DNA from: an uncultured bacterium
Lineage (GTDB): Bacteria > Krumholzibacteriota > Krumholzibacteriia > Krumholzibacteriales > Krumholzibacteriaceae
DNA: 64,000 bases
Direction: 5' to 3'
Assembly (NCBI GenBank): GCA_963813815.1
Contig: CAWFAD010000010.1
Location: 148,654 to 212,653, forward strand
The first letter of the stretch is position 1; every line of letters begins with the position of its first letter. This document shows positions 3,922-26,798 of the stretch, one piece after another. The notes under the pieces were generated by a model, which saw nothing but the letters and a program-made list of their open reading frames with translations, did not search any database and was not told the origin of the DNA. The translations under genes were made by a program, and so were the position numbers.

Positions 3922-3959
3922 GGGGCAAAGGGAGTTCGCTCTTTTTGCCCCGTTTTTTT
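3922..3959 (+). terminator. Rho-independent terminator after HU
   Basis: GGGGCAAAGGGAG-TTCG-CTCTTTTTGCCCC hairpin followed by a T7 tract. Confidence 0.9.
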
Positions 3960-4007: not shown

Positions 4008-5384
4008 ATGCGCTTCATGGTTCTCCTCCTCGGGGCGGGCGCCCTCGCCGCCTCGTTCGCCGGCTGCGACGAGGAGCGGCCGGTCACCGTGCTTTTCACG
4101 GGGGACGACCGGGGATTCGTCGTCCCCGCGGGTTGAGGGGAGACCGCCTCCGGCGGCGTGGCCCGGCGGGCCGCGAAAATCAACGAGCTCCGTCTCCGCG
4201 ACGCGGAGCTTCTGCTGCTCTCGGCCGGCGATTTCAGCGCCGAGCCCGGTATCGTCGAAATGTACCGCTCCCGTTTTCTCTCGCGCACGATGGTCGCTCT
4301 CGGCTACGACGCAGTGGCCGTCGGGGAGCGCGAGCTCAACCACGGCATCCGGACGCTCAAGGCGGAGGCGGAGGAGGGGCTGCCGCTCATCTGCGCGAAT
4401 CTCTTCGAGGGCGGGGAGCGCGTCTTTCCTCCGTATATCGTGAAAAAGGCGCACGGAAAGAGGATCGGCATTCTCGCGCTGCTCGGAGCTCCTCCGCGGG
4501 AAACGCGAGGGCTCGAGATCCGCGATCCGGCGTCCGAGGGGCGCGAGGTCATCGAGGAACTGCGGGGCCGGACGGACTGCATCATCCTCCTCGCGCACAT
4601 GGGGCGCGAGGAGCTCGCCCATGTGTTGCCGGCGCTCGAGGGGGTCGACATCGTCATCCGCGCTCACGCGGCGGGGATCGAGCAGGAAGCGGGCGACTGC
4701 GCCGATACGACGGGCGGCCACTTCGAGAACGCGGCGAAGCCGATCCTCTTCGCGGGGGATCGCGGCCGGAAAATCGGGCTCGCGGCCGTCGCCGCCGCGG
4801 GCGGAGATCGCCCCGCGCTCGTCGAGCGGCGGCTCTTCGATCTCGACTCGTCGGTTCCGGACGACTCCTCGACGGCGGAGCGGCTGCGCTCGTTCCTCGA
4901 CGGGGAAGGAGAGCGGCGGCGCGAGCTCTCCCTCTCGAGGGCGCTTTCTCGCGAGGAGGGGACGGGGCGCGTTCTCGAACGCTACCTCGGCGTGGACGTT
5001 TGCGCGCGCTGCCACGGGGAGCTCATGCCGCGATTCACGCTGAGCCGCCACTCCCGCGCGATGGGGACGCTCCGCGCGCGCGGGGAGGAAACGAACCCCG
5101 TTTGCCTTCCGTGCCATACTACCGGATACGGACGCCCGACCGGGTACAGCCCCGAAACAGAAACGAAGGGCGCGCCGTATCTTCAGGGGGTGCAATGCGA
5201 GGCCTGTCACGGTCCGGGAACGATGCACGAGCGCACCGGCGCCTACGCGGAGGCCGGCCGGAAATCCTGCCGCGCCTGCCACACGTCGAAGTGGAGCCCC
5301 GAGTTCGACTACGAGGCGTCATGGCGGCGGGCCGCGCATTGCGGGAAACTCGCGGACAGCGCGTCCGCCGCGGGAGCGCCATGA
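4008..5384 (+). CDS. Putative selenocysteine-containing lipoprotein: degenerate UshA/5'-nucleotidase-like domain plus tetraheme cytochrome c (c554-like); in-frame UGA at 4134-4136
   Basis: Signal peptide with lipobox FAGC. The frame continues across TGA (VVPAG-U-GETASGGVARRA) into ORF 4158..5384. Motif remnants SAGDF, GERE, LLAHMG; four CxxCH motifs (CARCH, CLPCH, CEACH, CRACH); selD is in the same window. Confidence 0.8.
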
Positions 5385-6124
5385 GAACGATCGCCAGCGC
5401 CGCAATCGCCCTCTCCCTCGCCGTCGCGGCCGTCCCCGCCGCCGCCGTGGATTTTCTCGTCCCCGGCGTCTCGCTCGGGTCCGTTTCGCTCGAGCCCGGC
5501 GCGCGGGTGCGCTACCTCGTCGTGACGCAATCGTTCGGATCGTCCGATAGCTCGCAGGTCGAGCTCGCCGTTCTCTCGCACGGCCGCGGCGAGGTTCGTC
5601 TCGAGGTGTCGACCGCGCCCTATCCGCCCAGCCGAGACGAGACGTTCACCGTGAGACTGCGGCTCGCGGAGAGCGTCACGTCGATCGAGTCGGCCGAGGA
5701 GTTCCGCGGGTGTCTCCGCGAGATCCGGATCCGCGAGGGGGACGAGGGTTTTCGCGCGCCCACGGATGACGAGCTCGACGAGCTCGCGATCGAGGATCTC
5801 TTCGTCCAAAGCTCCGCCGGCGCCGAGCGCCGGGCGCTCGAGAGCGGGAAGGTGGCCGTGCCGGCGGGATCCTTCACCTGCTCGGGGATCGAGACCTCGA
5901 GACGGAGCGCGCGCACGGTCACGCTCGGCGGCGTGCGGGCCGAGCGCACCGAGGAGGAGGTGACCCGGATCTACCTCTCCCGGGACGTGCCGCTCTGGGG
6001 GCTCGTGAAGAGCCGAATGGAAAAGCGGAGCATGATGCGGCGCGAGGGCGCCCCGGCCGCGGCGCCGCGGATCACGATCACCGAATCGACGCTGCTCTCG
6101 TTCGAGAGGCCGCGCGCGAGATGA
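5381..6124 (+). CDS. Hypothetical secreted beta-rich protein, translationally coupled to the upstream selenoprotein
   Basis: ATGA overlap at 5381-5384; signal peptide MRTIASAAIALSLAVAAVPAAA; 'VAVPAGSF.C' and 'VPLWGLVK' segments. Confidence 0.7.
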   Translation: MRTIASAAIALSLAVAAVPAAAVDFLVPGVSLGSVSLEPGARVRYLVVTQSFGSSDSSQVELAVLSHGRGEVRLEVSTAPYPPSRDETFTVRLRLAESVTSIESAEEFRGCLREIRIREGDEGFRAPTDDELDELAIEDLFVQSSAGAERRALESGKVAVPAGSFTCSGIETSRRSARTVTLGGVRAERTEEEVTRIYLSRDVPLWGLVKSRMEKRSMMRREGAPAAAPRITITESTLLSFERPRAR

Positions 6125-6240
6125 CGCTCTTCCCCGCCCGCGCGCCGGCGGCCGGCTCCCGCGTTCGAGACGATTCCCATTGATGCTTCCCTTGCGAAAA
6201 ACTATTTTTATGCTAGAATGTAATCTCAAGGGGGGAATCT

Positions 6241-25745: not shown

Positions 25746-26798
25746 GTGGAGGAGAAGCTTCGGCTGACCGCCATGGCTTCCTGCGCGGGTTGAGCGGCCA
25801 AGCTCAGCCCAACGGAGTTGTGGCCGGTTCTCGAACGTCTTCCCCCGCAGAGTCATCCCGCCGTCATCGTCGGCACGAATCAGGCGGATGACAGCGCGGT
25901 CGTGCGCCTCTCGGACGACATCGCGCTCGTTCTCACGCTCGATTTTTTCCCCGCCATCGTGGACGATCCGTACACCTTCGGCCAGATCGCGGCCGCGAAC
26001 GCTCTGAGCGATGTGTACGCCATGGGCGGGAAACCCATCACGGCGCTCAATATCGTGTCGTTCCCCGAAGGAAAGCTGCCGCTCGACGTGCTCGCCGAGA
26101 TGCTCCGCGGCGGCGCCGACAAGGTGAACGAAGCGGGGGCGGTCATCGTCGGCGGGCATACGATCCGCGGGAGCGAGGTCGTGTACGGCCTCTCCGCGGT
26201 CGGGCTCGTCCATCCGGAGAGAATCCTGAAGAAGCAAGGGATCGAGAACGGGGATCTTCTCGTTCTCACGAAGCCGCTCGGGACGGGCATCTACTCGACG
26301 GCCCTCAAGAACGGCGCGCTCGGGGCCGCTCGCGAGAAGCTCTTTTACGCCGCCATGTCGACCCTGAACCGCGCCGCGGCGGAAGGCCTGCACGATTTCG
26401 GCGCGCATGCCTGCACCGACATCACGGGCTTCGGTTTTCTCGGCCACGCGCTCGAGATGGCCCGCGCCTCGAACGTGAGCCTGCGGTTCGACGCGGCCGC
26501 GCTGCCGCTGCTGCCGGACGTCGTGGATCTCGTGGGACGGGGGTTCCTCACGGGGGGCGGCATGTCGAACCGGGAGTACGTAAAAGAGGAGCTCGCCGTC
26601 GAGGGAAAGCTGTCGGGCGAGCTCGAGATGATCCTCGTCGACCCTCAGACATCGGGCGGGCTTCTCGTCGCGCTCGCGCCCGATTCCGCCCGGCGCTACC
26701 TCGACGCCCTCGCGAAGCGGGGAGTGAGGGACGCGGCCGTCGTCGGCGAGGCGACCGCCCCCGAGGACAAGCGTCTCGTCGTCATGGCGCCCCGGTGA
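25746..26798 (+). CDS. selD: Selenide,water dikinase (selenophosphate synthetase), Sec-containing; in-frame UGA at 25791-25793
   Basis: GTG start gives EEKLRLTAMASCAG-U-AAKLSP in frame with ORF 25818..26798; DDSAV, TLDFF, AAANALSDVYAMGG, GGHT, TDITGFG..GH, DPQTSGGLL. Confidence 0.95.
25807..25824 (+). promoter_or_regulatory. Candidate bacterial SECIS hairpin of selD
   Basis: GCCCAAC-GGA-GTTG(T)GGC stem with a G-led loop 20 nt downstream of the UGA (paired by eye). Confidence 0.55.

Follow-up and report, generated by a model that had tools for sequence, protein, structure and literature searches.

A predicted UshA-like tetraheme selenoprotein of Krumholzibacteriales without the CxU cysteine and with an invariant cysteine in a clade-specific loop

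A lipoprotein-like gene of an uncultured bacterium in the order Krumholzibacteriales raises two questions: whether the UGA codon that interrupts it is read as selenocysteine, and how a selenoprotein of this kind might act if the cysteine that usually stands two residues before selenocysteine is absent. The gene lies in a window of 64,000 nucleotides, by which is meant the whole stretch of DNA that was analysed. Open reading frame calling under genetic code 11 splits the gene in two, a first piece upstream and a frame of 408 aa that begins at GTG 4158. When the UGA is read as selenocysteine, positions 4008-5384 of the plus strand form a single 458-residue frame with one internal TGA, in the context PAG-U-GETASGGVARRA; the signal peptide part and the 408-aa frame are thus in the same frame, as the initial annotation had claimed. 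The features that bear on decoding are as follows.

4008..5384, plus strand: whole gene, 458 aa if the UGA at 4134-4136 is selenocysteine, with a true TGA stop at its end; supported by orthologs
4134..4136, plus strand: in-frame UGA, predicted Sec43; TGA in 50/50 orthologs, and homologs with TGC/TGT cysteine in the same column
4157..4175, plus strand: bacterial SECIS-type hairpin with a GGC apical loop at 4165-4167, 28 nt after the UGA; supported by conservation
25761..26687, plus strand: selD (span of the HMM match), with its own in-frame UGA at 25791 (SCAGU)

A scan of 52 genomes of the same order found a match at E 1e-60 in 49 of them. The codon at the UGA column could be read in 50 genomes (44, including one partial locus below the E 1e-60 threshold, plus a further six) and is TGA in every one; the two genomes without a codon read are 82% and 73% complete. 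Relatives from other orders and phyla, which have the same four hemes, carry either CGU or a cysteine-encoded CGC (20 and 5 rows in one set, 43 and 18 in a second, although some loci may recur across the sets). The second set comprises 80 loci, among them five xGU loci and 14 without a readable motif. The alignment of homologs, originally proposed as a check, therefore places cysteine (TGC or TGT) in the UGA column. The genome, which is 90.8% complete and has a GC content of 66%, carries selA, selB, selC (tRNA-Sec) and selD, so the look-up of the first three that had been called for found them all; selA is present in 61/61 genomes tested. The Sec-type selD that had been recognised in the window does have an in-frame TGA, at which the code-11 caller splits it.

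The hairpin downstream of the UGA (CGTGGCCC-GGC-GGGCCGCG) folds as had been described, with 8 bp, a 3-nt GGC loop and a free energy of -15.5 kcal/mol. In this GC-rich DNA, its stability is not greater than that of shuffled sequences (z -0.12) and was dropped as evidence for a SECIS element. The support for the hairpin comes from comparison across genes, not from its own stability. A GGn loop on a stem of 5 bp, 28 nt past the codon, is found in 41/43 distinct xGU genes, 51/59 CGU genes and 1/17 genes with a cysteine codon; the hairpin is thus kept in 92/102 selenocysteine genes and lost in cysteine genes, in a count that leaves out seven rows (six Cys, one Sec) not located by motif. The CGU genes show compensatory changes, pair 2 occurring as C-G, T-A, A-T and G-C. 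In the clade formed by the genes of the order, the codon for Arg53 is CGG in 43/44 genes, compared with 404/1560 other arginine codons, and that for Ala52 is GCC in 44/44; these genes are kin, and the counts are not independent. The hairpin also agrees with the bacterial SECIS consensus as given in the available part of PMC13188914 (a loop of 3-9 nt with G first, a stem of 4-16 bp, a distance of 16-37 nt after the UGA, and an MFE <= -7.5). In one ortholog (L020), Arg54 has become glycine by a change in the SECIS loop, at its free third base, and the stem is kept.

Conservation of the codon, its alignment with cysteine, the conserved hairpin and the presence of the selenocysteine genes all bear out the initial annotation: the UGA is very likely decoded as selenocysteine, and SelB would read it through. 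That the TGA is instead a true stop (in a split gene, a pseudogene or a faulty sequence), or a tryptophan or glycine codon under another code, is most improbable. A true stop would fit the database entries, which, among the 120 matches listed, hold only the truncated product, as well as a GGGGAG located 5' of GTG 4158 and the unexceptional stability of the hairpin. It does not fit a TGA that all orthologs keep in a column aligned to cysteine, nor an upstream part that carries strand 1 of the fold and Asp33 and evolves as protein does: the 17 codons 5' of the TGA vary mainly at the third position (463/731, against 210 and 129). A base-call error, which the initial annotation had named among the findings that would overturn the proposal, is countered by the same orthologs and by a contig of an independent sequencing run (X2), which covers 4086-4181 with 0 differences. 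TGA is the commonest stop of this genome (244/492 long ORFs) and the sole tRNA-Trp is CCA; another genetic code is therefore ruled out.

Several other leads were set aside. A second recoding site, suggested by '1 TGA, 1 TAG' in class-level matches, consisted merely of terminal stops. Matches in sequencing runs were confined to contigs of small share, and the two RNA-labelled runs are not evidence of expression. A metagenome scan with the truncated protein as query turned up one fragment in its 199 candidates and gave no useful information. Two orthologs, L062 (G015) and L067 (G013), have a frame break in their 3' half, possibly an assembly error. The genome also encodes a second UshA-like selenoprotein (L004:1348-2391, minus strand, G000:C10), a PCGU protein with no hemes, which shares the GCCC-GGn-GGGC hairpin, again 28 nt after its UGA, and has an extra cysteine six residues past selenocysteine. 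A third paralog (L001:1423-2313, plus strand, G000:C7) is a cysteine-only lipoprotein (SCGC) that has neither hemes nor the hairpin.

The best family match of the complete protein is NCBIfam NF041198, UshA_like_PCGU (E 8e-62), at 209.5 bits against a cut-off of 275. The match covers model positions 19-237, the Ush-like part, and 343-519, the heme domain. Because the model includes the heme domain, the fusion of an Ush-like and a tetraheme part is already catalogued, and the novelty initially attributed to it is not upheld. Three other members of the clade score 199-233 bits, also below the cut-off, which was passed by 4/10 CGU, 0/3 xGU and 0/4 CGC proteins tested; three syntenic CGU orthologs in sister orders pass it, at 291, 283 and 283 bits. 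The gene is placed after lptD and hu in 49/49 xGU loci, and CGU loci are flanked by hu in 35/63 cases and by lptD in 37/63. These shared flanks identify the xGU genes as orthologs of the CGU genes. The gene reads PAGU where the family has its PCGU/CxU motif, and scores below the cut-off, yet it is orthologous to family members and very probably descends from the family. NF049981, UshA-like (seleno)protein family 2, gives 38 bits against a cut-off of 140.

In selenoproteome surveys, the family is entered as COG0737 'UshA-like, CxU', without a function in the available portions of those papers (PMC13188914, PMC2398784), and it is abundant, with 76 sequences in the GOS table of PMC2398784. A literature search, chiefly of open-access papers, returned no paper on the variant or on the function of the family; supplementary tables may contain such sequences. 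UshA is absent from a preprint on the SAO system (10.1101/2022.07.06.499078). Some family members are fused to DsbA or thioredoxin domains (P0123, P0127, P0130 and P0168, some of these domains scoring below the Pfam cut-off), and three of these carry two Ush-like CxC domains. Others (P0140, P0178, P0190, P0211 and P0264) are fused to DUF1573 Ig-like domains.

The protein itself can be divided into the following parts.

4008..4067, plus strand: signal peptide with lipobox-like FAGC; Cys20 (4065-4067) is the lipidation site predicted from sequence, present in 36/40 of the clade
4083..4943, plus strand: UshA/5'-nucleotidase-like metallophosphoesterase domain and linker helix, residues 26-312; PDB profile, Foldseek and model
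4104..4667, plus strand: retained metal-ligand positions D33 (4104), D75 (4230), E107 (4326), H197 (4596) and H220 (4665)
4980..5339, plus strand: cytochrome c554-like tetraheme domain, four CxxCH and conserved His 348, 407 and 444; PF13435 and 1BVB alignment

The predicted lipoprotein-type N-terminus, the UshA-like fold and the c554-like tetraheme domain that had been recognised initially are all supported. The N-terminus is hydrophobic up to the lipobox-like FAGC, which is LAGC, LSGC or AAGC in orthologs, and the protein is predicted to be exported, lipidated and anchored to the membrane in the periplasm. A profile of residues 26-312 matches 5'-nucleotidases in the PDB at E 1e-39 to 1e-23, and Foldseek matches 5'-nucleotidases at E 5e-22. 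An AlphaFold2 single-chain model has a pLDDT of 82 and a pTM of 0.68, with the nucleotidase domain mostly at 85-98, and places a long linker helix (287-312) ahead of the heme domain.

Residues D33, D75, E107, H197 and H220 align to nucleotidase metal ligands, as listed for UshA in the accessible part of PMC2843633; E107 corresponds to an asparagine in UshA. The UshA dimetal set is thus incomplete: four ligands are kept, the asparagine has become glutamate, and the histidine of DxH and the GHxQ position are lost. The catalytic histidine of GNH, whose role in nucleotidases is described in the part of PMC7922932 consulted, is lost as well (DxH has become DDR, and GNH has become GER), and its position is variable. 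The initial description of the metallophosphoesterase motifs as eroded therefore holds for about half of the metal site: the five remaining positions are kept together in 38/40 clade members, compared with 5/20 and 16/43 CGU relatives and 13/98 CxC representatives, counts that for the distant rows depend on a rough alignment of fragments. To judge from these residues, one metal site has probably been retained. No 5_nucleotid_C domain, the C-terminal substrate domain, was found in the protein with Pfam, the score against the UshA family is 53 bits against a cut-off of 600, and SoxB is among the weak HMM matches. Since the catalytic histidine and the C-terminal substrate domain are absent, this is not a normal nucleotidase, and ordinary nucleotidase chemistry has probably been lost.

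The four CxxCH motifs reported for the C-terminal part stand at residues 332, 366, 397 and 421, and the domain matches PF13435 at 54 bits against a cut-off of 20.8. Three extra histidines are conserved for the four hemes, in 120, 120 and 117 of the 120 homologs listed; one heme may therefore be open and five-coordinate. The genome has a cytochrome c assembly gene. Its only other multi-CxxCH frames are a 5-heme protein with weak likeness to ExtKL (L167:2183-3523), an 8-heme protein with weak likeness to DmsE (L168:2113-3480) and a MauG/MbnH-like diheme protein (L169:1504-2700).

Two positions that set the clade apart, and the gene downstream, are as follows.

4128..4130, plus strand: Ala41 (GCG), the position of the family's CGU cysteine; never Cys in the order (A33, F6, S4, Y3, G3, V1)
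4668..4742, plus strand: loop that follows H220 and has an insertion of about 9 residues in this clade only, which holds the invariant Cys231 (4698-4700) in D-C-x-D
5381..6124, plus strand: gene downstream, 247 aa, with an ATGA overlap; its start resembles a signal peptide, it matches no Pfam family, and its product may be a partner

The AGU motif had been noted in this one protein. It is not a one-off: the residue two positions before selenocysteine is A, F, S, Y, G or V, and cysteine occurs there in 0/50 orthologs. The 40 members in the alignment group together as a single clade (SH-aLRT 99 in a quick tree, from which four broken or partial rows were excluded). Cys41 is the only position that is invariant in 19/19 rows of the heme-bearing outgroup and lacking in each of the 40 clade rows, while Cys231 is one of three positions found in 40/40 clade rows and 0/19 heme-bearing outgroup rows. 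Cys231 is present in 49/49 genome orthologs that cover it and in 120/120 database homologs listed, which overlap the genomes and have their start cut at the TGA; it occurs in 0/25 and 0/61 outgroup rows. Some cysteine lies in the Cys231 stretch of 5/98 CxC representatives, in four cases where the next strand begins. The loop after His220 has 26 residues in the clade and 16-17 in outgroups, and model confidence is low around the insertion, with a mean pLDDT of 61 for residues 221-230 and 74 for 231-240. The earlier statement that no adjacent resolving cysteine exists stands; the lack of any partner does not follow from it, because the clade has the invariant Cys231.

Two thiols are the norm in the family, with CxC in 98/106 representatives that cover the motif. 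In P0261, which lacks the -2 cysteine, a shifted CxxC is found instead (AEC-PS-C); P0226 has a lone cysteine (VGC) and no visible substitute. Motifs without any cysteine are rare (PGA and YGY in P0186 and P0239), and the motif of L117 is PCAU. Cys129 is also invariant in the clade (40/40) and occurs without Cys231 in outgroups, in 7/20 CGU rows and 19/98 CxC representatives.

The downstream gene adjoins 43/49 xGU loci and 6/63 CGU loci. Its look-alikes in the atlas are hypothetical clusters (0.96-0.97), and there is a weak DUF3108-like/CT021 lead with recognition below threshold. A terminator-like hairpin after hu (3922-3951) and promoter-like sites past the downstream gene (6192-6229) suggest that the two genes may form a unit; the number of such terminator-like hairpins is not above the chance count (1 vs 2.3). 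The neighbours lptD and hu are uninformative on the substrate.

The reading that is put forward here, with a probability of about 0.4, is that of an exported oxidoreductase in which Sec43 is reactive, Cys231 is its relocated partner, a metal positions an anionic substrate and the hemes relay electrons. Sec43 would be the reactive residue, and its redox partner, now that Cys41 is lost, would be Cys231. The remaining ligands would hold one metal and place the anionic substrate, which might contain sulfur or selenium, beside Sec43. A selenenylsulfide between Sec43 and Cys231 would then form and be recycled by the heme domain, whose c554-like hemes would move the electrons. A redox role as such is fairly likely, and is favoured by the DsbA and thioredoxin fusions among family members. 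The specific pairing of Sec43 with Cys231 is a tentative proposal, favoured because the loss of Cys41 and the gain of Cys231 are reciprocal and because of the two-thiol norm and the shifted CxxC of P0261. Three observations speak against it. Loss and gain fall on one branch and therefore constitute a single evolutionary event, on a branch where 11 further positions also became near-fixed, which makes 12 near-fixed changes; Cys129 is likewise invariant in the clade; and P0226 manages with a single cysteine and no visible substitute.

The invariance of Cys129 also bears on a different arrangement, in which Sec43 works by itself and an outside thiol, a heme or a partner protein such as the product of the downstream gene recycles it, while Cys231 has a structural role, for instance through a disulfide with Cys129. 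Cys129 could indeed be the partner of Cys231, and this reading would also fit the absence of cysteine close to selenocysteine in sequence, the lone cysteine of P0226 and the position of the downstream gene beside most xGU loci. It is nevertheless unlikely, as Cys129 exists without Cys231 in the outgroups already mentioned, its strand would lie on the far side of the sheet according to the fold topology, and the downstream gene also accompanies some CGU loci. The better-kept metal site raises another possibility, equally doubtful: Sec43, perhaps with Cys231, might be a metal ligand that replaces the DxH histidine and the GHxQ/H ligand in a domain remodelled as a metalloenzyme or as a module that binds metal, such as a hydrolase that resembles SoxB and cleaves S-S or S-O bonds, rather than in a selenenylsulfide oxidoreductase. 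The selenocysteine loop follows directly on the first metal motif, the five ligand positions are kept far more often in the clade than among relatives, and SoxB is among the weak matches. However, the Sec/Cys loop stays unchanged even in relatives from which most metal ligands have gone and is thus metal-independent in the family, the catalytic histidine is absent from a position that varies, and the hemes would be left unexplained. That the protein is a 5'-nucleotidase or phosphoesterase of the ordinary kind, to which selenocysteine and the heme tail are incidental, has the fold and the best structural matches in its favour, but is very improbable for a protein without the catalytic histidine, the DxH histidine and the 5_nucleotid_C domain that falls so far short of the UshA cut-off.

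What distinguishes the clade from its CGU relatives is the order-wide loss of the CGU cysteine, the invariant Cys231 in a clade-specific insertion and the better-kept metal ligands. Motif-based catalogues would miss the clade, in which the CxU motif is broken, the family score lies below the cut-off and the database entries are truncated, mostly under the names hypothetical protein or multiheme cytochrome. It is conceivable, although somewhat unlikely, that a CxU selenoprotein has shifted its resolving cysteine by 190 residues into a new loop and kept its metal site, which would give a periplasmic Sec-Cys-metal catalytic centre that a swinging tetraheme domain of the c554 type would serve. If true, this would be an undescribed type of enzyme, and the logic of its active site would account as well for the UshA-like selenoprotein family, which is uncharacterised. 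Should Cys231 be the replacement partner, the second thiol of the family would be shown to be a redox partner; should it not be, a useful correction of annotation is left.

Compared with known systems, the closest likeness is to NF041198, which has the same two-domain layout, selenocysteine column and hairpin position; the present gene differs in lacking the -2 cysteine, in the insertion that holds the invariant Cys231 and in its better-kept metal ligands. NF049981 shares a selenocysteine-bearing UshA-like domain, but its 262-position model covers no heme domain. Escherichia coli UshA and CD73 have the N-terminal fold, the linker helix and the Asp, Asp, His and His ligands in common with the protein; here the asparagine ligand is glutamate, there is no counterpart of the DxH histidine, of the catalytic His117 or of the Gln254-type ligand, and a cytochrome replaces the C-terminal substrate domain. 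The C-terminal domain of UshA rotates, according to the available parts of PMC2843633 and PMC7922932, and the heme domain occupies the place of this rotating, substrate-binding domain. With Nitrosomonas cytochrome c554 (1BVB) and hemes 1-4 of OcwA (6I5B), the heme domain shares four CxxCH motifs and three conserved further histidines; in the c554 alignment, motifs 2 and 3 and His407 correspond to c554 residues 60-64, 88-92 and His102. The domain differs from these cytochromes in being shorter (about 120 aa) and fused to the nucleotidase-like part, and no HAO context was found for it.
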